Under the pieces are notes generated by a model. It did no database searches and was not told the DNA's origin. It saw nothing but the letters and a program-made list of their open reading frames with translations. Shown here one piece after another: positions 33,588 through 46,252 of a stretch of DNA of 64,000 nt (positions are counted from its first letter, which is position 1; every line of letters begins with the position of its first letter). Origin of the DNA: Escherichia coli (GTDB taxonomy: Bacteria; Pseudomonadota; Gammaproteobacteria; Enterobacterales; Enterobacteriaceae); NCBI RefSeq assembly GCF_050920415.1, contig NZ_CP169309.1; one strand, written 5' to 3'. The translations under genes were made by a program, and so were the position numbers.

Positions 33588-34688
33588 ATGACCCCCGAAC
33601 ACCTTCCAACAGAACAGTATGAAGCGCAGTTAGCCGAAAAAGTGGTACGTTTGCAAAGTATGATGGCGCCGTTTTCTGACCTGGTTCCGGAAGTGTTTCG
33701 CTCGCCGGTCAGTCATTACCGGATGCGTGCGGAGTTCCGCATCTGGCACGATGGCGATGACCTGTACCACATTATTTTTGATCAACAAACCAAAAGCCGC
33801 ATCCGTGTAGATAGCTTCCCCGCCGCCAGTGAACTTATCAACCAGTTGATGACGGCGATGATTACGGGTGTGCGTAATAATCCCGTTCTGCGCCACAAGC
33901 TATTCCAGATTGATTACCTCACCACGCTGAGCAATCAGGCGGTGGTTTCCCTGCTGTACCATAAAAAGCTGGATGACGAATGGCGTCAGCAGGCGGAAGC
34001 TTTGCGCGATGCGTTGCGCGCACAAAATTTAAATGTGCATCTGATTGGTCGGGCAACGAAAACCAAAATCGCGCTGGATCAAGATTACATCGACGAACGT
34101 CTGCCGGTCGCAGGGAAAGAGATGATCTACCGTCAGGTAGAAAACAGCTTTACCCAGCCGAACGCGGCGATGAATATTCAGATGCTGGAATGGGCGCTGG
34201 ACGTCACCAAAGGCTCAAAAGGCGATTTACTGGAGCTGTACTGCGGCAACGGTAACTTCTCATTAGCCCTGGCGCGCAATTTTGATCGGGTATTAGCCAC
34301 CGAAATCGCCAAGCCTTCGGTCGCTGCCGCGCAATACAACATTGCCGCTAACCATATTGATAACGTCCAAATTATTCGTATGGCGGCAGAAGAATTTACT
34401 CAGGCGATGAATGGTGTGCGCGAGTTTAATCGCCTGCAAGGGATCGACTTGAAGAGTTATCAGTGCGAAACCATTTTTGTCGACCCACCGCGCAGCGGTC
34501 TGGACAGTGAAACCGAGAAAATGGTGCAGGCGTATCCACGTATTCTGTATATCTCCTGCAATCCGGAAACGTTATGCAAGAATCTGGAAACATTAAGCCA
34601 GACGCACAAGGTTGAACGTCTGGCTCTGTTTGATCAGTTCCCCTACACGCACCATATGGAGTGCGGCGTATTACTGACCGCGAAGTAA
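33588..34688 (+). CDS. trmA: tRNA/tmRNA (uracil-C5)-methyltransferase TrmA, 366 aa
   Basis: ORF track; recognisable sequence. Confidence 0.95.
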
Positions 34689-34693
34689 AATCT

Positions 34694-34720
34694 ATGCCGG
34701 ATGCGCCAGCATCCGGCATG
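34694..34720. terminator. Bidirectional hairpin between convergent trmA and yijD
   Basis: Perfect palindrome ATGCCGGATGC-GCCAG-CATCCGGCAT, 5 nt after the trmA stop and 8 nt after the yijD stop. Confidence 0.5.
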
Positions 34721-34727
34721 ATACCGA

Positions 34728-35087
34728 TTACTCAGCAACTTCCTGCTTACGGTTACGCATCTTCGCGCCAATCCAGAACACCATAATGACGGACAGTACT
34801 GCCGGGAAGAAGTTAGAGCCGATATCCGGATATTCCGCACGAACTACCGTGCTGTACAGCAGTACGCCGAGAATAAAACAAGCAGCAGCCAGACCCGGCA
34901 AGCCTACCGGCATAGTGCGATTAAGATAACGTTGATGCAGGCAGTAAACTGTCAGCACCAGGGAAATAATCGGGAATACAGAAAATGGCACAATGGAGCT
35001 AAACAGCGCTGCGAAAGTACCATTAATCGATAAGCCAGCAACTAACGCCAGCAGCAGCGTACCTCTATCTTGATTTGCTTGTTTCAT
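34728..35087 (-). CDS. yijD: Inner-membrane protein YijD, 119 aa
   Basis: ORF track; hydrophobic; start overlaps the fabR stop. Confidence 0.88.
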
Positions 35088-35791
35088 TACTCGTCCTTCA
35101 CATTTCCCGGAATAATTGCGGTTTTCTCTTGTTCACGGCGATACCAGTAATAAGCCCCTTTCGAAATCATTCGCAGTTGCAGTACCAGTCGCTCTTCTAA
35201 TTGCCGACGTTGTTCGACGCCGACGTCCAACGCCTCGGCACCCGCACTGAAGACAATCGTCACCATGGCTTCGGCTTGCGCTTCAGTAAACGCACGCGGC
35301 ATATGGTTTTCGAGTTCCAGATAGTCCGCAAGTTCCGCAATGAAGTGCTGAATTTCACGCGCAACGGCGGCACGAAACGCAGCGGAGGTGCCGGAGCGTT
35401 CCCGCAATAATAACCGGAAGGCGTTAGGATTATTACCGATGAACTCCATAAATGTGGAGACCGAGGTGCGGATCACACTCCCACCTTTGGCGATACGCTG
35501 ACGCGCCTGGCGCATGAGTTGGCGCAGCATTAAACCGCTCTCATCAACCATGGTCAGACCGAGTTCGTCTACGTCGCGAAAATGCCGATAAAAAGAGGTG
35601 GGAGCAATGCCCGCTTCACGCGCCACTTCACGCAAACTCAGGCTGGCGAAGCTGCGTTCAGCACTTAATTGGCTAAATGCGGCTTCCACCAACGAACGGC
35701 GGGTTTTTTCTTTTTGTTGCGCTCTTACGCCCATCACGATGTCTGAATCCTTGCCAAAAGTACTGCTGGCACTATACCAGAGAATGAACAT
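35087..35791 (-). CDS. fabR: TetR-family unsaturated fatty-acid biosynthesis repressor FabR
   Basis: ORF track 35087..35830; start uncertain between Met at 35791 (234 aa) and Met at 35734 (215 aa). Confidence 0.85.
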
Positions 35792-36068
35792 ACTGGATTG
35801 CTCCAGTGTTGTGAATGAACCGTAACGCAATAAAACATATTTACTGCAATTCTTTGGCCGGTTCTTTTACGAACATCGGAAACCTGCCGCTTAAACGGTG
35901 AGTATTGGCGATAAAAATCCAATAAAACGTTCAAGGCAAAAGTAAGAAACAGACAAAGCAAAGGCCGCTCACGATATAGCCAGATAAATGACGGGGATCA
36001 ATTGGCTTACCCGCGATAAAATGTTACCATTCTGTTGCTTTTATGTATAAGAACAGGTAAGCCCTACC

Positions 36069-37469
36069 ATGCCACATTCCTACGATTACGATGCCATAGT
36101 AATAGGTTCCGGCCCCGGCGGCGAAGGCGCTGCAATGGGCCTGGTTAAGCAAGGTGCGCGCGTCGCAGTTATCGAGCGTTATCAAAATGTTGGCGGCGGT
36201 TGCACCCACTGGGGCACCATCCCGTCGAAAGCTCTCCGTCACGCCGTCAGCCGCATTATAGAATTCAATCAAAACCCACTTTACAGCGACCATTCGCGAC
36301 TGCTCCGCTCTTCTTTTGCCGATATCCTTAACCATGCCGATAACGTGATTAATCAACAAACGCGCATGCGTCAGGGATTTTACGAACGTAATCACTGTGA
36401 AATATTGCAGGGGAACGCTCGCTTTGTTGACGAGCATACGTTGGCGCTGGATTGCCCGGACGGCAGCGTCGAAACACTAACCGCTGAAAAATTTGTTATT
36501 GCCTGTGGTTCTCGCCCTTATCATCCAACAGATGTTGATTTCACCCATCCACGCATTTACGACAGCGACTCAATTCTTAGCATGCACCACGAACCGCGCC
36601 ATGTACTTATCTATGGTGCTGGAGTGATCGGCTGTGAATATGCGTCGATCTTCCGCGGTATGGATGTAAAAGTGGATCTGATCAACACCCGCGATCGTCT
36701 GCTGGCGTTTCTCGATCAGGAGATGTCAGACTCTCTCTCCTATCACTTCTGGAACAGTGGCGTAGTGATTCGTCACAACGAAGAGTACGAAAAGATCGAA
36801 GGCTGTGACGACGGTGTGATTATGCATCTGAAGTCGGGCAAAAAGCTGAAAGCCGACTGTCTTCTCTATGCCAACGGTCGTACCGGTAATACCGATTCGC
36901 TGGCGTTACAGAACATTGGGCTGGAAACTGACAGTCGTGGACAGCTGAAGGTCAACAGCATGTATCAGACCGCACAGCCGCACGTTTACGCGGTGGGCGA
37001 CGTGATTGGTTATCCGAGCCTGGCGTCGGCAGCCTATGACCAGGGGCGCATTGCCGCGCAGGCGCTGGTGAAAGGTGAAGCCACCGCACATCTGATTGAA
37101 GATATCCCTACCGGCATTTACACCATTCCGGAAATCAGCTCTGTAGGCAAAACCGAACAGCAGCTGACCGCGATGAAAGTGCCGTATGAAGTGGGCCGCG
37201 CCCAGTTTAAACATCTGGCACGTGCACAAATCGTTGGCATGAACGTGGGTACGCTGAAAATTTTGTTCCATCGGGAAACAAAAGAGATTCTGGGCATTCA
37301 CTGCTTTGGCGAACGCGCTGCCGAGATTATCCATATCGGGCAGGCGATAATGGAACAGAAAGGTGGCGGCAACACTATTGAGTACTTCGTCAACACCACC
37401 TTTAACTACCCGACGATGGCGGAAGCCTATCGGGTAGCCGCGTTAAACGGTTTAAACCGCCTGTTTTAA
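36069..37469 (+). CDS. sthA: Soluble pyridine nucleotide transhydrogenase SthA (UdhA), 466 aa
   Basis: ORF track; FAD-binding GSGPGG motif. Confidence 0.95.
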
Positions 37470-38369
37470 CACTTTATCGAAATGGCCATCCATTCTTGCG
37501 CGGATGGCCTCTGCCAGCTGCTCATAGCGGCTGCGCAGCGGTGAGCCCGGACGATAAACCAGGCCAATAGTGCGGCGTGGTTCCGGCTTAATACACGGCA
37601 AATAAACAACCCCATCGCGTTTGCGCTCCGGCGGCACAGCCAGTGCAGGCAGTAAAGTGATCCCGCTACCTGCCGCCACCATGTTGCGCAGAGTTTCCAG
37701 GCTGGTCGCGCGGAAGTGTGTATCTTCATCCGCCCCGGCTTCAAAGCAGAAACCCATTGCCTGATCGCGCAAACAGTGACCATCTTCCAGCATCAGCAGT
37801 TTTTCCCCTGCCAGATCGGCCATCGGTACGCATTCGCGGTTCGCCCACGGGTGATCTTCATAGATAGCCAGCAACATTGGCTCATCAAACAACGGCACTT
37901 CAATGAATGCTTCGCTCTCTTTCACCAGCGCGAGGATCACGCAATCGAGTTTGCCGCTGTCCAGTTGCGCCAGTAACTGGTGGGTCTGTGCTTCATGCAG
38001 ATACATTTCCAGCTTTGGAAAGGTCTGGTGCAGCATCGGAATAATATGCGGTAACAGGTAAGGCCCAACCGTGGGAATCAAACCAATATGCAGCGGCCCG
38101 GACATTGTCTCGCCCTGCTGGCTTGCCATCTCTTTAAGGACTTTCACCTCACGCAGCACGGTACGCGCCTGATCCACCAGCAGCATTCCCGCCTGGGTGA
38201 ACAACACTTTACGGCTGGTCCGCTCCAGCAACATCACGCCCAGCTCATCTTCCAGCTTACGAATTTGCCCGCTAAGCGTCGGCTGGCTAACGTGGCAGGA
38301 ATCTGCCGCACGCCGAAAATGACGGTGTTCAGCCAATGCCACCAGGTACTCAAGATCACGAATATTCAT
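37452..38369 (-). CDS. oxyR: LysR-family hydrogen peroxide sensor/regulator OxyR, 305 aa
   Basis: ORF track 37452..38399; canonical start [18 protein letters not shown] at 38369; redox cysteines present (HCLRDQ and CIKPEP contexts); 18-nt convergent overlap with sthA. Confidence 0.95.
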
Positions 38370-38464
38370 TATCCATCCTCCATCGCCACGATAGTTCATG
38401 GCGATAGGTAGAATAGCAATGAACGATTATCCCTATCAAGCATTCTGACTGATAATTGCTCACA
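38370..38464. promoter_or_regulatory. Divergent oxyR/oxyS promoter region with OxyR operator
   Basis: 95 nt between the oxyR start and the oxyS 5' end; repeated ATAG-type elements; assignment from the known oxyR-oxyS architecture. Confidence 0.6.
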
Positions 38465-38578
38465 GAAACGGAGCGGCACCTCTTTTAACCCTTGAAGTCA
38501 CTGCCCGTTTCGAGAGTTTCTCAACTCGAATAACTAAAGCCAACGTGAACTTTTGCGGATCTCCAGGATCCGCTTTTT
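38465..38578 (+). ncRNA. oxyS: OxyS small regulatory RNA
   Basis: Sequence GAAACGGAGCGGCACCTCTTTTAACCCTTGAAGTCACTGCCCGTTTCGAGAGTTTCTCAACTCGAATAACTAAAGCCAACGTGAACTTTTGCGGATCTCCAGGATCCGCTTTTTTTT recognised, including the terminal hairpin and U-tract. Confidence 0.88.
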
Positions 38579-38620
38579 TTTATTCTACAGGCCCACAGCA
38601 AGAGAGCCTGATAGTAACAG

Positions 38621-39904
38621 TTACTCAATCCGATCTTTGACAATAAAGAAGTAACACAGCGCCCCGGTGAACGTCACACAGGCCGCGATAACCAGCGCCA
38701 GATTAAACGAGTGCGTGGTATCCACTACCCAACCGGTTACGATCGGAGCAAAGGAAGCAAAAACAAAACTGCCAAAGTTTTGAATCCCGGCGATGGAAGC
38801 CACTTTTGTTTCTGACACCATCACCTGCACCAGTCCCCATGCAGATGTTCCCGCGAAATGCACGCAGAACAGCGCCATTGAGATAAACGCTACAGCCTGG
38901 GCTGGCGAGGAGGATTGCACGACCAGCAACGTGCCTAATGCCGACATCATCAAACCGCAAACAATAGCCGTTTTACGCGTCTTCGCCAGGTCGTAGCCTT
39001 TTTTCGCCAGCCGATCGACAACAATACCGTTAACCCACATCCCGACCGCCGCCGCGAGGAAAGGAATCGCCGCCACCCAACCGGTTTTCGCCAGACTGAA
39101 GCCTTGCTCGGCTTGTAAATAACCGGGTAACCACGCGATGTAGAGCCAACCGGTATAATTGACGCCAGAGAAACCTAAAATCATCCCCCAGGTTGTCCGA
39201 TGCTTAAACAGCGCCAGCCACTCGCTAAATTGTAATTGTGGACGCGGTTTAACCGGCGCGGAGAGATAGGTCCGTTCTTCGTCGGTCAGGACAAACTGCG
39301 CCCGGTTGCGATACCACGCGTACCAACAGATCCCAACCAGAATCCCCGCCACGCCGATGATGACGAACATTGCCCGCCAGCCCCATGCCAGCTGCATCAA
39401 TACAAGAGCAGGAGGCGCAATAGCCTGACCGATAACGGTAGATGAGTTAAAAATCCCCAGCGCCGTGCCGCGTTCTTTTTGCGCATACCAGTCGGTGATC
39501 GACTTTACTCCCGCAGGCATAAATGGCGCTTCGCCAATACCCAGACCGATACGCATTAAAATAAAGTGGCTAAAAGAATTAACCATTCCTGTTAATGCCT
39601 GCATTAATGACCAGAATATTAAGCCTGCGCCTAAAACTATTCGTGGGCCAAAGCGGTCTAGCAAAATACCGGAAGGGAGTTGTGAAAAACCATAAGACAG
39701 AGAAAATGCAGAAAGCAAAACGCCAAATTCTGTCGCCGATAATCCTAACTCGCCACGAATCGCTTCGCCTGCCACGCTCAATGACGAACGGTCGAGGAAA
39801 TTAACGATCCCCGCCATAAATAATAAAACCAGCGTTACTGTCTGAATACGACGAATCCGTTGCGGTTTATTACCCGCAACACTGGTTGACACATCAACGT
39901 CCAT
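38621..39904 (-). CDS. MFS transporter, anion:cation symporter (ACS) family; putative sugar-acid (hexonate/hexuronate-type) permease, 427 aa
   Basis: ORF track; 12-TM hydrophobicity pattern; N-terminal NFLDR motif and overall similarity to DgoT/ExuT/GudP-type permeases; not at this locus in K-12 as I recall it. Confidence 0.8.
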   Translation of the reverse strand: MDVDVSTSVAGNKPQRIRRIQTVTLVLLFMAGIVNFLDRSSLSVAGEAIRGELGLSATEFGVLLSAFSLSYGFSQLPSGILLDRFGPRIVLGAGLIFWSLMQALTGMVNSFSHFILMRIGLGIGEAPFMPAGVKSITDWYAQKERGTALGIFNSSTVIGQAIAPPALVLMQLAWGWRAMFVIIGVAGILVGICWYAWYRNRAQFVLTDEERTYLSAPVKPRPQLQFSEWLALFKHRTTWGMILGFSGVNYTGWLYIAWLPGYLQAEQGFSLAKTGWVAAIPFLAAAVGMWVNGIVVDRLAKKGYDLAKTRKTAIVCGLMMSALGTLLVVQSSSPAQAVAFISMALFCVHFAGTSAWGLVQVMVSETKVASIAGIQNFGSFVFASFAPIVTGWVVDTTHSFNLALVIAACVTFTGALCYFFIVKDRIE

Positions 39905-39970
39905 TTTTAGCTCCTTGAGCGGAATTAATCGATTTGCTGACTATTCAGAAAATAATTAAGCGAACCGTTA

Positions 39971-41185
39971 TTACCAGTTCCACAATGTGCCATCTTCCAG
40001 TCGTGCGACGGGGAGATACGCCGGGTCATACGGATATTTCGCCGCCAGTTTCTCATCGAAAGAAATACCCAGCCCCGGTTCATCGCCTGGGTGCATATAA
40101 CCTTCATCGAAGCGCCAGCTGTGCGGGAAGACTTCAAGCATTTGTTCGGAATAGCCCATGTACTCCTGAACGCCAAAGTTTGGCACCCAGAGGTCAAAAT
40201 GCAGCGCCGCCGCATGACAAACAGGCGATAAATCTGAAGGGCCATGCGAACCGGTACGTACCTGATAAAGCGATGCAAAATCGGCAATCCGTCGCATCCC
40301 GGTAATGCCGCCTGCATGGGTAATCGTCGTGCGAATATAGTCAATCAGCTGCTCTTCGATTAACTGCTTGCAGTCCCAGATACTGTTAAACACTTCACCG
40401 ACCGCAATCGGCGTCACAGTATGCTGGCGAATCAGACGAAAACATTCCTGGTTCTCGGCAGGCGTCGGATCTTCCATCCAGAACAGGCGGTAATCCTCAA
40501 TGCTCTTCCCAAAGCGCGCCGCTTCGATAGGAGTCAGGCGATGGTGCATGTCATGCAACAGATGTTCGTTAAAACCGAACTTATTACGCACCGCTTCAAA
40601 TAACTTCGGTGTAAAATCGAGATACTTTTCTGAAGACCACAACTGCTCTTCCGGCCACAGGCCTTTGGTTGCCGGTTCATACGCCAGTCCTTTGCCCTTC
40701 GCCAGGCCATAAGTGGTTTGCATACCCGGTACACCGCACTGCACACGAATCGCCTTAAAGCCCATCAGCTGGTGCTTTGCATAGTCTTCAAGGACTTCAT
40801 CAATCGTGCGCCCGGTGGTGTGGCAATAAACCATCACGCCTTCACGAGAAGCCCCACCAAGCAGTTGATACAATGGCATATTTGCCGCTTTGGCTTTGAT
40901 ATCCCACAACGCCATATCAATGGCAGAAATGGCCGACATCGTGACGGGGCCACGTCGCCAGTAAGCACCTTTATAAAAGAATTGCCAGATATCTTCGATA
41001 CGGCTGGCATCGCGGCCAATTAATTGTGGACAAAGATGATCTTTCAGATAAGAAGCGACCGACAATTCGCGACCATTTAATGTGGCATCTCCCAATCCAC
41101 AAAGTCCGCTTGCAGTGGTTATTTTAAGCGTAACGAAATTACGTCTTGGGCAAGTAACAAAAACATCTGCAGCAATAATTTTCAT
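39971..41185 (-). CDS. Enolase-superfamily dehydratase, D-mannonate dehydratase (ManD)/RspA subgroup, 404 aa
   Basis: ORF track 39971..41245; start moved to ATG at 41185-41183 ([13 protein letters not shown]), preceded by RBS CAGGAG; hallmark RspA/ManD blocks [54 protein letters not shown]. Confidence 0.85.
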
Positions 41186-41670
41186 TATTGCAATCTCCTG
41201 TGTTGTAAATAGATGCTTCAAACTTAATTTTACGCCTACTACCATACAAGAGAGAAAGAGCGATTATTCAACCGTGATCACATTAAAAATAAAAATTTCC
41301 GCCGAGGAGAAAAAACACCCTCAAAAACCACCTGAATAATTAACCATTATCGTTAAAACAACACGTTAAATAATCACATAACAAACTCCATTAATCATTA
41401 AATATGAGCGCAGCAATAGAAATGAATTATATTCAATTAATTAAAATATGTATTGATTGATGTATTGAAAATATGATTTTCATGGGGAGAGTGAAGGTAA
41501 AGAAGACGCAAGAATAAAAAGGAATATGACAAATAATAGTTCTGGTTGGGCGTTAAATTTAAGGTCACCAGAATGCTGACAAATTTCTGCCTGAGGCAGT
41601 CCGCCTACGTAGTGTCGCTACTTTATAGGCGTGGTAAGCTCCCCATTTTCAGGGGAGCAATATAAACCAA
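41186..41670 (-). promoter_or_regulatory. AT-rich upstream region of the accessory operon (putative promoter)
   Basis: About 485 nt ORF-free, locally very AT-rich (e.g. 41340-41560), between the argH stop and the dehydratase start; no promoter elements assigned. Confidence 0.4.
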
Positions 41671-43044
41671 TTACCCCAACCGCGCCTGCGCAAAAGCAAT
41701 CGCCTGCGCCACCTGCTGCGGGGAGACGCCGCCTTTTGCCGCACGCTTGTCGAGGCACGATTGCAGCGACAGAATCGGATAGACATCTTCGCCAATCACC
41801 TCGCTGAATTTCTGCAACTCACTGAGCGGCAGTTCTTCCAGCGGTTTGCCCTGACGAATGGCTTCCACCACCGCTTCACCAACAATATGGTGCGCCTCGC
41901 GGAACGGCACACCTTTCGCCACCAGGTAATCCGCCAGTTCAGTGGCGTTCGCATACCCCTGCTGCGCCGCTTCCTGGCAACGTGGGCGTTTCACCTGAAT
42001 CCCGTCCAGCACCAGCGCCGCCATATGCAGGCAGTCCAGCCAGGTATCGAGCGCATCGAACAGACCTTCTTTGTCTTCCTGCATATCTTTGTTATAGGCC
42101 AACGGCAGACCTTTCAGCGTCATCATCATGCCGGTCAACGCGCCCTGAACACGACCGCATTTACCGCGAATCAACTCCAGCGCATCCGGGTTTTTCTTCT
42201 GCGGCATTAATGATGAACCGGAAGTAACACGATCAGAAAGCTCCACAAAACCCGCTTCGCCGGTGTTAAAGAAAATCAGATCTTCGGCAAAACGCGACAA
42301 ATGCACCATACCGATAGCGGCGGCAGATAGCAGTTCCAGCACGTGGTCGCGGTCAGAAACGCTGTCGAGACTGTTACGGGTCGCCGAGGCAAAGCCCAGC
42401 CAGCCTGCTAACTGTTCACGGTCGATTTCATAGGCCGTTCCCGCCAGGGCGCCACAGCCTAGCGGGCTGACATCCAGACGCTTAAGCGCATCCTGCAAAC
42501 GGCTTTCATCACGCGCCAGCATCTCAACATAGGCCAGGCACCAGTGCGCAAACGTCACCGGCTGGGCGCGTTGCAGGTGAGTGTAACCAGGCATTACCGC
42601 GTCCTGATTATTCTGCGCGGTTTCCACCAGCGCCGATTGTAACTGTCGGTTAGCCGTCAGCAACTCGCTAACGGTATCCTTGCACCACAGTTTCAGGTCA
42701 GTCGCTACCTGATCATTACGGCTACGCCCGGTATGCAGTTTTTTGCCTAACTGGCCCACTTTGTCGATCAGTTTGCCTTCCACCCAGCTATGGATATCTT
42801 CGGCGTCGCTTTCAAGAATTTGTTGTGGCCTGGCGCGAACATCTTCCAGCAGCACATTGAGCGCCTCTTCCAGTTGCACCTGTTCTTCTGCGGTTAACAC
42901 GCCTACCGTTACCAGCGCTTTGGACCAGGCCACAGAGCCAACAATATCCTGCTCCGCCAGACGGTAATCAAAGCGCAGTGAGTCGTTGAATTGTTTAAAC
43001 CGTTGATCTGCTGCCTGGGTAAAACGCCCGCCCCAAAGTGCCAT
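41671..43044 (-). CDS. argH: Argininosuccinate lyase ArgH, 457 aa
   Basis: ORF track; recognisable sequence. Confidence 0.96.
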
Positions 43045-43104
43045 AACTCTGTTTCCTTATTTTGAAATTCAATGCCAGAAAGCTACGTCTCTGGCCAACA
43101 AAAC

Positions 43105-43881
43105 TTAAGCTAAAATCCGCGTACCCATCGGCATACCGTTAAACAGTGCCGGAAGCTGTTCCGCATGACGCCAGGAGGCAATATCTACCGGGCGACCCAG
43201 CGTGCGCGCAGCGTCCAGCGCCGCGTTCACTTTCACTATCATGCCGTCAGTAATAATGCCCTGCTCAATCAGTTGTTCTGCTTTCGCTGCGGTCATTTCG
43301 GCAATACGTTGCCCTTTGCCGTCGAGAATACCGCTGACATCAGAGAGCAAAATCAGATCCGCGCCCAGCGTTGCCGCCAGCGCCGTCGCCGCCTGGTCAG
43401 CATTGACGTTCATCAGTTGCCCTTCGTCCGTTACGCCAATGGAGCTGACCACTGGTAGATAACCGTTTTCCAGCAACGTGTTGATAAGCTTAGGCGAACC
43501 TGGCTGCGCCAGTCCAACATGGCCTAACTCTTCATCGAGCTGGGTCACTTTTACGCTGTCGCCGTCACCGAGAAACAAACCTACGGCTGCAATCTGATGT
43601 TTCTTCGCCCATGCCAGCAGGGTTTTATTTGCCGTTCCCGCCAGCGCTCCGGTGATAATGTCTATCTGATCCGCAGGCGTCACCCGCAGGCCGTTTTTCT
43701 TTTTCACCGGCAGATTCAGTCCTTTCATCAGCTCATCCACCACGCAGCCGCCGCCGTGGACAATCACCAGCGGACGCTGATGTGACTCGCGATAATTCAC
43801 CAGGGCGCTAAACAGACGTTCCAGCGCCTCTTCACTATCCAGCAGTACGCCGCCCAGTTTGATAATTAATGGATTCATCAT
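43105..43881 (-). CDS. argB: Acetylglutamate kinase ArgB, 258 aa
   Basis: ORF track 43105..43914; start set to [11 protein letters not shown]. Confidence 0.93.
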
Positions 43882-43888
43882 TGCACCC

Positions 43889-44893
43889 CTAAATAAGAGA
43901 CTGCGTTTCCGCATAGCCGAAACGAATATTGGCGCACTGTACCGCTTGTGCTGCCGCGCCTTTCAATAAGTTGTCTTCGGTCGCCACAATAATCAGATGT
44001 TCCCCCTGAACGGCAAAACCGATATCGCAGAACGGCAGCCCGACGACATTTTTCAGCGCCGGAACGCCTTTGTCATACAACCGTACCAGCGGTTTATGGG
44101 CATACGCCTGCTGTAACGCTTGCGCGACTTGCGCCTGGTTCACGCCAGGCTTCAGGCGGCAGGTAATGGTTTCGAGAATGCCGCGCGGGAAATTGCCCAG
44201 ATGCGGGGTAAAAATAACGTCAGCACCGAGATGCGTGGCGATCTCCGGCTGGTGGCGATGGGTAAAGACACCATACGGTTGCAGGCTAACTTCACAAAAA
44301 CTATTTGAAATCGCTGCCTTACGTCCTGCTCCGCTCACACCACTGGTGGCGTTGATAACCGGCCACTGATTGAGGTCAAGAAGATCGGCATCAATCAACG
44401 GTTTCAGCGCCAATTGCGCCGCCGTCGGATAACAGCCAGGCACCGCAATTAAGTTCGCTTCTTTTAATTTATGACCGCACCACTCCGCCAGACCGTAAGC
44501 TGCCTGTTCCAACAGTTCCGGGTATTGATGGCTAAAGCCGTAATATTTTTCATAGAAGGTGGCGTCGTTAACACGAAACGCGCCGGAAAGGTCGAACACC
44601 ACACAGCCCGCTTCAAGAAATTGTGGCGCTAAATCGTGACTAACTTCATGGGCAGTAGCAAGAAACACCACGTCCACCCCTGGGCTAAACTCACTGATAT
44701 CCGACATCGGCTGCAACGGCAGATCAACGATGCCTTTTAGCTGCGGATGCAAATCGGAGATTAACTTTCCCGCATCATTGCTTTGCGCTGAAACAGTCAA
44801 AGCGGTTATGTTCATATGCGGATGGCGATTTACATAGGTCACTAGCTCTGCGCCAGCGTAACCGCTGGCACCCACAATCAGCGTATTCAACAT
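43889..44893 (-). CDS. argC: N-acetyl-gamma-glutamyl-phosphate reductase ArgC, 334 aa
   Basis: ORF track; recognisable sequence. Confidence 0.95.
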
Positions 44894-45046
44894 CGGGGCT
44901 ATTCACCTTCTTATGTCTGGTTGCCTGGTTAAACGTAAAACATTCACCTTACGGCTGGTGGGTTTTATTACGCTCAACGTTAGTGTATTTTTATTCACAA
45001 ATACTGCATGAATATTGATACTATCATGACCAGAGGTGTGTCAACA
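44894..45046. promoter_or_regulatory. Divergent argE / argCBH control region with ArgR operators (ARG boxes)
   Basis: Palindromic AT-rich ARG-box-like repeats TTATTCACAAATACTGCATGAATATTGATA at about 44985-45030 between divergent argC and argE. Confidence 0.65.
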
Positions 45047-46198
45047 ATGAAAAACAAATTACCGCCATTTATCGAGATTTACCGTGCTCTGATTGCCACA
45101 CCTTCAATAAGCGCCACGGAAGAGGCACTCGATCAAAGCAATGCAGATTTAATCACTCTGCTGGCGGACTGGTTTAAAGATTTGGGCTTCAATGTGGAAG
45201 TGCAGCCCGTGCCGGGAACTCGCAACAAATTTAATATGCTGGCAAGTACCGGACAGGGAGCTGGCGGTTTGCTGCTGGCGGGGCATACCGATACGGTGCC
45301 ATTTGATGACGGCCGCTGGACGCGCGATCCGTTTACGCTGACGGAGCATGACGGCAAGCTTTACGGCTTAGGCACCGCCGACATGAAAGGCTTTTTTGCG
45401 TTTATCCTCGATGCACTACGCGATGTCGACGTCACGAAACTGAAAAAACCGCTCTACATTCTGGCGACTGCCGATGAAGAGACCAGTATGGCAGGAGCGC
45501 GTTATTTTGCCGAAACTACCGCCCTGCGCCCGGATTGCGCCATCATTGGCGAACCGACGTCGCTGCAACCGGTACGCGCGCATAAAGGCCATATCTCGAA
45601 CGCCATCCGTATTCAGGGCCAGTCGGGGCACTCCAGCGATCCAGCACGCGGAGTTAACGCGATCGAATTGATGCACGACGCCATCGGGCATATTTTGCAA
45701 TTGCGCGATAATCTGAAAGAACGTTATCACTACGAAGCATTTACCGTGCCATACCCTACGCTCAACCTCGGGCATATTCACGGTGGCGATGCATCTAACC
45801 GTATTTGCGCTTGCTGTGAGTTGCATATGGATATTCGTCCGCTGCCAGGCATGACACTCAATGAACTTAATGGTTTGCTCAACGATGCATTGTCTCCGGT
45901 GAGCGAGCGCTGGCCGGGTCGTCTGACGGTCGACGAGCTGCATCCACCGATTCCTGGCTATGAATGCCCACCGAATCATCAACTGGTTGAAGTGGTTGAG
46001 AAATTGCTCGGAGCAAAGACCGAAGTAGTGAACTACTGTACCGAAGCGCCGTTTATTCAGACGTTATGCCCGACGCTGGTGCTGGGACCTGGCTCAATTA
46101 ATCAGGCTCATCAGCCTGATGAATACCTGGAGACACGGTTTATCAAGCCCACCCGCGAACTGATCACCCAGGTGATTCACCATTTCTGCTGGCATTAA
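45047..46198 (+). CDS. argE: Acetylornithine deacetylase ArgE, 383 aa
   Basis: ORF track 45008..46198; canonical start [15 protein letters not shown] at 45047, preceded by a GAGGTG RBS. Confidence 0.94.
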
Positions 46199-46201
46199 AA
46201 C

Positions 46202-46252
46202 GTAGGCCAAACAATGTCGGATGCGATGCTTGCGCATCTTATCCGACCTACA
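46202..46252. repeat. REP (repetitive extragenic palindromic) element
   Basis: GTAGGCC...CGGATGCGATGCTTGCGCATCTTATCCGACCTAC imperfect palindrome just after the argE stop. Confidence 0.6.

Follow-up and report, generated by a model that had tools for sequence, protein, structure and literature searches.

What fills the roughly 3 kb between oxyS and argH in this Escherichia coli chromosome, how did it come to lie there, and what could it do for the cell? We addressed these questions in the window, the whole stretch of 64,000 nucleotides analysed here (assembly GCF_050920415.1, contig NZ_CP169309.1). A preliminary description had recorded an insertion of about 3 kb between the oxyS terminator and the argH stop codon, at a site where the core gene order leaves only tens of base pairs.

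Anatomy and distribution of the argH-oxyS islet

Alignment to E. coli K-12 MG1655, which matches window positions 37059-38581 and 41671-43394, bears out both statements: an islet of 3089 bp (38582-41670) stands in place of a 54-bp spacer. The left flank is the core oxyS sRNA gene with its terminator (38465-38581, plus strand). OxyS matches Rfam RF00035 at 38465-38574 (+, 139.5 bits), and the terminator is composed of a hairpin at 38555-38573 and a T8 run. K-12 homology stops at the end of this run, which places the left junction at 38581/38582. The right junction is the stop codon (41671-41673) of the core gene argH (41671-43044, minus strand), where K-12 homology resumes.

The features of the islet all lie on the minus strand. 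Read from argH, they are a variable, AT-rich distal upstream segment of about 30% GC (41390-41670), a promoter-proximal segment of 204 bp common to every islet variant (41186-41389), the dehydratase gene manD (39971-41185, 404 aa), an intercistronic spacer of 66 nt (39905-39970), an intact gene for a 427-aa MFS permease (38621-39904), and a 39-bp spacer from the MFS stop codon to the oxyS terminator (38582-38620). The preliminary description of a minus-strand operon, dehydratase then permease with 66 nt between them, preceded by 0.5 kb of AT-rich DNA, thus stands with small refinements of the coordinates. The region upstream of manD measures 485 bp (41186-41670), with a GC content of 30-38% in 300-bp windows, and the GC content of the islet coding sequences is similar to that of the host. 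We placed the true manD start (MKIIAAD) at 41185, whereas the mechanical ORF list extends to 41245; RefSeq annotates the start there in a near-identical genome, which differs by 2 SNPs in 15 kb, and the PDB homologues begin at the equivalent point.

Two further elements, both missing from the preliminary description, lie close to argH. A degenerate REP element in the distal segment (around 41588-41636) is complete in the B2 strain clone D i14 and has a 13-bp deletion in the window copy. A predicted hairpin at 41638-41658 follows argH directly and has no T-run. Small ORFs in the AT-rich region are short and unconserved, and an Rfam search of 37000-43500 returned OxyS only. None of the hallmarks of a mobile genomic island (an integrase or transposase gene, a tRNA or an attachment site, direct repeats at the flanks) was found: the ORF survey yielded no integrase or transposase, the tRNA scan of 34000-46000 was empty, and the repeat search gave no direct or inverted repeats bracketing the islet edges. 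This agrees with the earlier reading of edges free of integrase, IS element, tRNA and direct repeat.

The islet is part of the accessory, non-core E. coli genome, as had been proposed. It occurs in 1860 of the 5426 complete genomes (~34%), and the K-12-type empty site in 3554 of the 5426; K-12 itself lacks the islet. All matches are chromosomal (2477/2477), and full-length copies occupy the same locus wherever their context was examined. The bearers include B2 extraintestinal lineages, for example clone D i14, which we take to be CFT073-like. The promoter-proximal 204 bp are common to 1865 genomes, including 147 with a nested 9.6-kb module that wholly replaces the distal segment. Outside E. 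coli, Escherichia sp. E1V33, E. whittamii and Escherichia sp. MOD1-EC7003 have the same islet in the identical position, and Citrobacter sp. R56 carries a decayed version there, in which only the first 32 and the last 33 codons of manD are left. The argH-oxyS site is multi-state: it can be empty, hold manD-MFS, hold manD-MFS with the 9.6-kb sugar module, carry a Citrobacter chitinase, or bear IS insertions.

Age and origin

We compared the divergence of the islet genes with that of the flanking core genes. In four inter-species comparisons the islet dS tracks that of the flanks, and within Escherichia the islet dN/dS is 0.011-0.062 over dS of up to 0.37, like sthA, oxyR and argH. Therefore, the islet is old, has co-diverged vertically with its surroundings and is under purifying selection. 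Salmonella, Citrobacter L032 and Escherichia sp. E4694 retain a spacer of the K-12 type, including the argH terminator hairpin, which indicates that the empty state is ancestral and the islet an ancient replacement of the spacer. We lean, with slightly better than even confidence, towards a joint explanation in which the islet replaced the spacer before the Escherichia radiation and has persisted as a presence/absence polymorphism. An old or recombination-mediated acquisition had been suggested previously; this is supported, and sharpened by the same site of occupation in three other Escherichia species and by the flank-like dS.

The same gene pair is found in other enteric genera, which points to an origin in the rsp locus; there, this locus has the order ynfA-[MFS, ManD]-rspB-ydfJ-like-ydfI-rspR-ydfG-dcp. 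Homologues of the permease (82-89% aa identity) and of ManD (91-93%) lie within this locus in Enterobacter, Pluralibacter, Klebsiella, Raoultella, Lelliottia, Siccibacter and Atlantibacter. The islet manD and rspA are ancient paralogues (dS ~2). The islet thus looks like a satellite of the core system for sugar acids, rsp (RspR/CRP).

Since several Escherichia species and one Citrobacter share both the islet and its site, it could also be ancestral to all enterics, with the K-12 state having arisen by deletion. We consider this very improbable, and the alignment of outgroup spacers led us to reject it. The islet ends carry nothing that corresponds to the argH hairpin of the K-12-type spacer (GCCnGGC...GCCGGGCTTTTTT), which Salmonella, Citrobacter and Escherichia sp. 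E4694 have conserved, so that deletion of the islet could not have regenerated this hairpin. A recent, horizontally acquired island delivered by a mobile element, which the ~30% GC of the AT-rich upstream segment and the patchy occurrence among strains might suggest, is effectively refuted by the lack of integrase, IS, tRNA and flanking repeats, the host-like coding GC, the exclusively chromosomal matches with full-length copies at one locus wherever their context was examined, the agreement of islet and flank dS in four inter-species comparisons, and the host REP element embedded in the islet.

The encoded proteins and their promoter

Both protein identities given in the preliminary description, an enolase-superfamily dehydratase and an ACS-family MFS permease, prove correct. 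Against the NCBIfam equivalog model NF043051 (cutoff 550), ManD reaches 726.3 bits over residues 1-404, and against NF011654 (cutoff 430) it reaches 800.8 bits, whereas the galactonate dehydratase model scores it below its cutoff. It is ~90% identical to PDB 4IL2 (RspA) and 4E4F (mannonate dehydratase), which we take to come from E. coli CFT073 and Pectobacterium, respectively. In alignments with both, R147, Y159, D212, H214, E238 and E264 of ManD are identical; in ManD enzymes, Asp, Glu and Glu reportedly serve as Mg2+ ligands, a Tyr-Arg dyad as the base and a His as the acid. On family models and catalytic residues alike, the protein is a member of the ManD subgroup of the enolase superfamily, and RefSeq names it 'D-mannonate dehydratase ManD'. 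Judged by its identity to K-12 RspA (91.3% aa, 80.4% nt), it is also a paralogue of RspA. The closest characterised enzymes, the CFT073 RspA and the Pectobacterium ManD, are said to be 'low-efficiency' ManDs for which no physiological role was found. Our literature searches found no paper on CFT073 c4920/c4921, and nothing specific on manD as an accessory gene or on RspB with gulonate.

The permease matches Pfam MFS_1 (PF07690) over residues 28-365, with E of ~1e-53 to 2e-53, in keeping with the MFS fold of 12 TM helices. Its best NCBIfam match, TIGR00893, reaches 275.3 bits, under the trusted cutoff of 395, and we therefore describe it as ACS-like and not as a certified member of that model. 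The best PDB match is DgoT (6E9N, 197 bits, ~30% identity), and D38, R39 and E125 of the permease align with D46, R47 and E133 of DgoT, of which D46 and E133 are reported to be proton-coupling and R47 carboxylate-binding. RefSeq names the protein 'MFS transporter', and its homologues are named just as generically in the sources; the genes neighbouring its distant homologues (42-43% identity, Allorhizobium and Bryobacteraceae) are uninformative. An orthologous relationship to E. coli YdfJ was ruled out, as blastp gave no match to K-12 YdfJ at E <= 1e-5, and the YdfJ-like transporters in the rsp loci of other genera match the metabolite:H+ symporter model TIGR00883. The permease gene of the nearest genome has a nonsense mutation, R88*, at window position 39643.

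Motif comparison identified an rsp-type box, CTTGTATGGTAGTAG (41237-41251, minus strand), which begins 64 nt upstream of the ATG of manD. The window holds no second copy, with 0.02 chance matches expected, and the same element stands at -65 in K-12 rspA and in 19/19 loci compared. Upstream lies a CRP-like site, TAATGTGATCACGGTTGAATAA (41264-41285, minus strand), with a poor right half and a TGTGA half-site (41278-41282) exactly 33 nt upstream of TTGTAT; the core of the box, TTGTATGGTAG, occupies 41237-41249. This spacing is kept in 18/19 loci from ~10 genera, K-12 rspA included. The motifs do not vary between Escherichia species and persist in Citrobacter, amid non-coding DNA that has diverged, and the promoter-proximal 204 bp hold blocks conserved with Citrobacter R56. 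A blastn comparison of the islet upstream region with that of K-12 rspA found no homology beyond the coding sequence, only short motifs being common to the two.

In K-12, RspR footprints on ATACnnGTAT and represses rspA, which is transcribed from a start 30 nt upstream of the ATG (PMC8249747). The islet signature TGTGA-33 nt-TTGTATGGTAGTAG overlaps the position of this footprinted box, and we regard the box CTTGTATGGTAGTAG as a putative -35 element (TTGTAT) combined with the right half of an RspR operator. A complete ATACnnGTAT is absent from the islet, which has the right half only: it reads TCTCTTGTAT, with TCTC and not ATAC in the left half; other genera, too, lack this half in their MFS-first rsp operons. 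Since the left half of the palindrome is unconserved, RspR binding may be weak or absent. Nevertheless, because the promoter is of the rsp type, the regulator of the islet is probably the core RspR, supplied in trans, together with CRP, and we infer that CRP would bind the TGTGA site. The rspR gene is present in 5416 of the 5426 E. coli genomes. The proposed promoter escaped a sigma-70 consensus scan, because its hexamers are too weak for the scan thresholds. A KdgR-like box noticed by eye at ~41466-41482 (TGAAAAT-ATG-ATTTTCA) was rejected; it has the wrong spacing, lies in the variable distal segment and is unconserved in other Escherichia islets.

Proposed role and comparison with known systems

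We propose, with confidence only a little above even, that this old, non-mobile 3.09-kb islet is a paralogue of the rsp module, with promoter, ManD and a proton-coupled ACS permease, and serves acid-sugar import under RspR/CRP control. Transcription would start from the rsp-type promoter, with a CRP site near -61.5 and a -35 TTGTAT overlapping the RspR-type operator, so that the core repressor RspR (YdfH), acting in trans, and catabolite repression would govern the islet. The MFS permease, an H+ symporter in this model, would take up an acid sugar, for which D-mannonate is the most parsimonious candidate; alternatively, L-gulonate might be imported and turned into D-mannonate by the core enzymes RspB and YdfI/UxuB. 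ManD would then convert D-mannonate to 2-keto-3-deoxy-D-gluconate (KDG). The islet was correctly said to have no kinase, aldolase or regulator of its own; these two enzymes would be the core KdgK and Eda, yielding pyruvate and glyceraldehyde-3-phosphate. The order L-gulonate, fructuronate, mannonate, KDG follows published pathway logic (PMC5788505). In Rouxiella, a 71%-identical MFS protein adjoins a UxuA of the classical type and a regulator resembling UxuR; there a non-orthologous enzyme has displaced the dehydratase, which points to mannonate as the substrate.

Several observations count against this proposal: the left half of the RspR palindrome is unconserved, the right half of the CRP-like site is poor, the closest characterised enzymes are reportedly of low efficiency, E. 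coli already has UxuA, the permease scores below the TIGR00893 cutoff and bears generic names only, two thirds of strains do without the islet, and there is decay, as in the R88* allele of the nearest genome and the gutted manD of Citrobacter R56. The absence of the islet from 65% of E. coli and the decay would also fit a cryptic relic of a duplicated rsp module, passively carried without a present role and being lost, and so would the redundancy with the core enzyme UxuA and the reportedly low-efficiency close homologues for which no role was demonstrated. We regard such a relic as unlikely, since dN/dS of 0.011-0.062 over dS to 0.37 is indistinguishable from that of the flanking housekeeping genes, the promoter motifs have been retained amid diverged non-coding DNA, and the catalytic and proton-coupling residues are intact.

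The same architecture might instead handle a different acid sugar, for instance D-gluconate, L-idonate or some other hexonate, in which case the mannonate label would be an over-annotation. The ManD subgroup is said to include D-gluconate dehydratases and promiscuous enzymes, and the permease is only ~30% identical to any characterised ACS transporter and below the TIGR00893 cutoff. Moreover, in other genera the pair is accompanied by RspB and YdfI and, in some of them, by UxaC-like and GPH transporter genes, which suggests a broader hexuronate/hexonate context. We give this a minor share of our confidence: the equivalog score lies far over its cutoff, ManD is ~90% identical to proteins deposited as D-mannonate dehydratases, and the Rouxiella permease is paired with UxuA, whose sole known substrate is D-mannonate.

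A further suggestion concerns termination. The terminator scan found no minus-strand intrinsic terminator in 38582-38620, which folds into only a weak hairpin without a T-run, and the operon is therefore without an intrinsic terminator of its own, whereas Citrobacter R56 has a proper one at the equivalent place. The oxyS 3' end lies 46 nt past the MFS stop codon. Since the islet displaced the ancestral argH terminator, transcription of the manD-MFS operon, once induced, or read-through from argCBH could continue antisense to oxyS, and the supply of sugar acids would then modulate the OxyS branch of the oxidative-stress response. We consider this a long shot; if true, the OxyS arm would be modulated by transcriptional interference or antisense pairing in a third of strains.

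The islet is real, and it is an ordinary accessory metabolic islet, a RefSeq-annotated gene pair of an already known type. If the role in acid-sugar import is right, D-mannonate or L-gulonate would have an additional way into the cell, controlled by RspR/CRP, in one third of strains, and a dedicated transporter would give the 'low-efficiency' ManD/rsp system a physiological context. The locus illustrates cleanly, in a natural setting, a presence/absence polymorphism of ancient date at an intergenic hotspot with several states, and an accessory operon that seems to be tied to a core regulator whose gene lies elsewhere. It does not change current concepts, and is mainly useful for strain-level metabolic models and for extending the RspR regulon.

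Comparison with known systems indicates what is shared and what is particular to the islet. The closest relative is the E. coli rspAB/RspR regulon: ManD and RspA (b1581) share 91% aa and 80% nt identity, the catalytic residues are identical, and the promoter signature lies at the same 64-65 nt from the ATG. However, rspAB is near-core and lies at ynfA-ydfJ, its second gene encodes the Zn-dehydrogenase RspB in place of an ACS-type MFS permease, and its conserved left half of the RspR palindrome is missing from the accessory islet (34%) at argH-oxyS. The rsp-locus pairs of Enterobacter, Klebsiella, Raoultella, Lelliottia, Siccibacter and Pluralibacter share both genes (82-93% aa), the promoter signature and, in some genera, the ManD-then-MFS order, but belong to a full locus with rspB, ydfJ-like transporters, ydfI and rspR, whereas the islet has only the pair and its promoter at another locus. 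The dgo operon likewise combines an ACS proton symporter, DgoT, with an enolase-superfamily dehydratase, DgoD, that gives a 2-keto-3-deoxy acid, and D46, R47 and E133 of DgoT are conserved in the permease. Unlike dgo, the islet has no kinase, aldolase or regulator in cis, its permease is ~30% identical to DgoT and its dehydratase is of another subgroup. Finally, the UxuA (uxuAB) route shares the predicted reaction and its product KDG, and in Rouxiella a homologous transporter (71% aa) stands beside UxuA; ManD is unrelated to UxuA in fold and family, and the Rouxiella cluster, unlike the islet, encodes its UxuR-like regulator in cis.

Anatomy of the islet

The window runs in reverse orientation to the K-12 map. 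Alignment to K-12 MG1655 covers window positions 37059-38581 and 41671-43394, and between these blocks 3089 bp (38582-41670) stand in place of the 54-bp argH–oxyS spacer of K-12. The insert of about 3.1 kb noted in the preliminary description is therefore real, with its junction shifted by 3 bp. On one side lie sthA (36069-37469, plus strand), oxyR (minus strand, end near 38369) and OxyS (38465-38574, plus strand; Rfam RF00035, 139.5 bits), and on the other argH (41671-43044, minus strand). The islet itself holds ORFs for an MFS permease (38621-39904, minus strand, 427 aa) and the dehydratase ManD (39971-41185, minus strand, 404 aa), 66 nt apart, followed by a 485-bp AT-rich stretch (GC 30–38% in 300-bp windows) up to argH. 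The dehydratase start was placed at 41185, and the mechanical ORF start at 41245 was not used. The feature had been read correctly: ORFs, composition and alignment confirm the two-gene minus-strand insert, its 66-nt gap and its AT-rich upstream part, while an ORF survey, tRNA scan and repeat search found no integrase or IS ORFs and no tRNA genes at the locus, and no direct or inverted repeats at the islet ends.

The dehydratase scores 726 bits against the NCBIfam ManD equivalog NF043051 (cutoff 550) and is labelled 'manD: D-mannonate dehydratase ManD' in RefSeq. It is ~90% identical to two solved structures: 4IL2, an E. coli CFT073 protein deposited as RspA, and 4E4F, a Pectobacterium protein deposited as mannonate dehydratase. 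Residues R147, Y159, D212, H214, E238 and E264 are conserved, and catalytic roles for these six are described in the N. aromaticivorans ManD literature. Islet ManD and K-12 RspA share 91.3% amino acid and 80.4% nucleotide identity with a dS of about 2, so they are ancient paralogues.

The permease is an MFS_1 protein whose best family model, TIGR00893 (ACS/D-galactonate-transporter), gives 275 bits, under the cutoff of 395. DgoT is its closest solved relative (197 bits), and D46, R47 and E133 of DgoT align with D38, R39 and E125 of the islet protein. Kinship with E. coli YdfJ was rejected, as blastp gave no hit to the K-12 protein at E ≤ 1e-5. Public sources give generic names only ('MFS transporter' in RefSeq). 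Between the window and the closest public genome, NZ_CP169399, there are 2 SNPs in 15 kb. G>A at window 39643 (MFS codon 88) creates the nonsense change R88* and a RefSeq pseudogene call for the permease, unlike the window copy, which is intact.

Two further differences were observed nearby. The argE-ppc spacer (window 46208-46210) is about 300 bp long in the window versus 597 bp in K-12, which has ~300 bp extra. Upstream of sthA, an M20 aminoacylase gene directly adjoins sthA in the B2 strain clone D i14 (L003 1-161, in that locus's own coordinates), and in Escherichia sp. E4694 an M20 aminoacylase and a sugar-type MFS gene lie between sthA and fabR (L033 7631-10156). The window lineage and K-12 lack these genes at the equivalent place (window about 35700-36068), which makes this another small accessory islet at a distance of a single gene.

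Distribution and age

At least 80% of the islet is found in 1860 of 5426 E. coli genomes, chromosomal in every case, and 3554 of the 5426 have the K-12-type empty site. The accessory status proposed earlier thus holds, the pair being absent from this site in K-12. The window allele (at least 99% identity) occurs in 159 genomes, other copies being ~97% identical. Window 13025-64000 is only 95.3–98.3% identical to K-12 over 51 kb (argH, 95.5%), indicating a strain lineage rather distant from K-12.

The site has other states. In 147 of the 5426 genomes, all among the 1860, a nested 9.6-kb module accompanies the islet and lies between argH and the promoter-proximal 204 bp of manD; in E. coli WP2-W18-ESBL-10 (L037 4364-13967) it replaces window 41390-41670. 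It encodes an araD-like L-ribulose-5-P 4-epimerase, an L-ribulose-5-P 3-epimerase, an FGGY kinase, a DeoR regulator and a 4-gene sugar ABC transporter, and looks like an L-xylulose/pentitol-type pathway. The same spacer of a Citrobacter braakii/freundii contig (L031 1074-3518) carries an 814-aa GH18 chitinase with a hint of CBM5/12, so this spacer is a hotspot at which integration has recurred across genera. One genome, E. coli E423 (L035 7311-8285), has an ISApl1 (IS30-like) transposase within an otherwise empty spacer.

A species-level genome scan with the islet permease as query located the islet at the argH–oxyR site in Escherichia sp. E1V33, E. whittamii, Escherichia sp. MOD1-EC7003 and Citrobacter sp. 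R56, the last retaining only the first 32 and last 33 codons of manD. Between the window and the B2 strain, dS is 0.09–0.11 for manD and the MFS gene and 0.08–0.22 for flanking genes; the corresponding ranges are 0.15–0.28 and 0.17–0.33 for E1V33, and 0.27–0.37 and 0.20–0.40 for E. whittamii. Four-fold-site divergence follows the same pattern, and permease divergence from Citrobacter is at least that of the flanks. Islet dN/dS (0.011–0.062) equals that of sthA, oxyR, argH and argB; thus purifying selection has acted on the islet while it diverged in step with its neighbours. The same-site islets and flank-like dS bear out the suggestion of an old or recombination-mediated acquisition.

The empty site is present in Salmonella enterica, another Citrobacter braakii/freundii contig (not the one with the chitinase) and Escherichia sp. 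E4694; all three have the specific argH terminator hairpin of K-12, GCCnGGC...GCCGGGCTTTTTT. This hairpin has no counterpart at the islet ends. The empty allele is thus ancestral in the enterobacteria; an old replacement of the spacer gave rise to the islet, and empty and occupied alleles have coexisted since. The kind is a known one, a non-mobile accessory metabolic islet that is old and under selection, and RefSeq already annotates it.

Putative function and possible transcriptional read-through

The most economical reading is that the permease would import D-mannonate and ManD would dehydrate it to KDG, which KdgK and Eda, the core enzymes that complete the KDG pathway, would process to its end. 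Rouxiella pairs a 71%-identical permease with the classical mannonate dehydratase UxuA, unrelated to ManD, and a UxuR-like regulator, which supports mannonate as the substrate. Alternatively, the substrate may be L-gulonate, with RspB and YdfI supplied by the rsp context; a route from L-gulonate through fructuronate and mannonate to KDG is documented elsewhere (PMC5788505). Against a strong role for the islet, two thirds of strains lack it, decay is seen in NZ_CP169399 and Citrobacter R56, and a literature search found no papers on the manD-permease pair. UxuA is also present in E. coli, and the nearest relatives among characterised enzymes are 'low-efficiency' ManDs that are not known to have a physiological function; both count in the same direction.

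In Escherichia islets, a terminator scan and folding revealed no intrinsic terminator downstream of the permease gene (window 38582-38620), whereas the Citrobacter R56 islet does possess one. In place of the ancestral argH terminator stand a hairpin lacking a T-run (window 41638-41658) and a REP remnant. argCBH, manD and the MFS gene share one direction and all face into oxyS. Since both terminators are missing, transcription of the manD-MFS operon could, speculatively, run antisense into oxyS.

The predicted rsp-type promoter and origin of the islet

No upstream homology between the islet and rspA was detected by blastn. Nevertheless, the islet carries an element, CTTGTATGGTAGTAG, at window 41237-41251, with its TTGTAT beginning 64 nt before the manD ATG; its core 13-mer occurs once in the window (0.02 matches expected by chance). 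The same element is found at -65 in K-12 rspA and precedes the leading gene in all MFS/ManD operons examined. Upstream of it comes a TGTGA, at a spacing of exactly 33 nt at 18 of the 19 loci and of 34 nt at the remaining one. DNase I footprinting has placed RspR on this region of K-12 rspA (box ATACnnGTAT), where it represses, and transcription starts 30 nt before the ATG (PMC8249747). With TTGTAT as the -35 hexamer, the TGTGA site would be centred near -61.5, a class-I CRP position. The right half of this CRP-like site is weak in the islet. The rspR gene is present in 5416 of 5426 genomes. Where the published RspR palindrome would lie, the islet reads TCTCTTGTAT and retains its right half alone, as do the rsp operons of other genera in which the MFS gene comes first. 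All islet variants have in common the 204 bp directly upstream of manD; the distal 281 bp vary and comprise AT-rich DNA, a degenerate REP element and the argH-proximal hairpin. This predicted rsp-type promoter is the main new point and appears not to have been described before.

Descent of the islet from an rsp module likewise appears to be undescribed. In neighbour-joining trees the islet genes form a separate old lineage, with the permease clustering with loci of ManD-then-MFS order. Orthologous permease (82–89% amino acid identity) and ManD (91–93%) genes lie inside the canonical rsp locus of Enterobacter, Pluralibacter, Klebsiella, Raoultella, Lelliottia, Siccibacter and Atlantibacter, in the order ynfFEDC-speG-ynfBA-[MFS, ManD]-(uxaC-like, GPH transporter)-rspB-ydfJ-like transporters-ydfI-rspR-ydfG-dcp. 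Enterobacter sp. kpr-6 has two ManD genes in a single rsp locus (L008 1243-2454 and 8712-9923), the second of which is paired with the MFS gene and has an unannotated 232-aa ORF in front of it; the two are each other's closest relatives, which indicates recent duplication or gene conversion. The rsp-locus orthologues and the trees together identify the islet as a paralogue of the leading part of an rsp-type operon, now detached from it, and the rsp locus of E. coli, unlike those of the seven genera, is without this permease.
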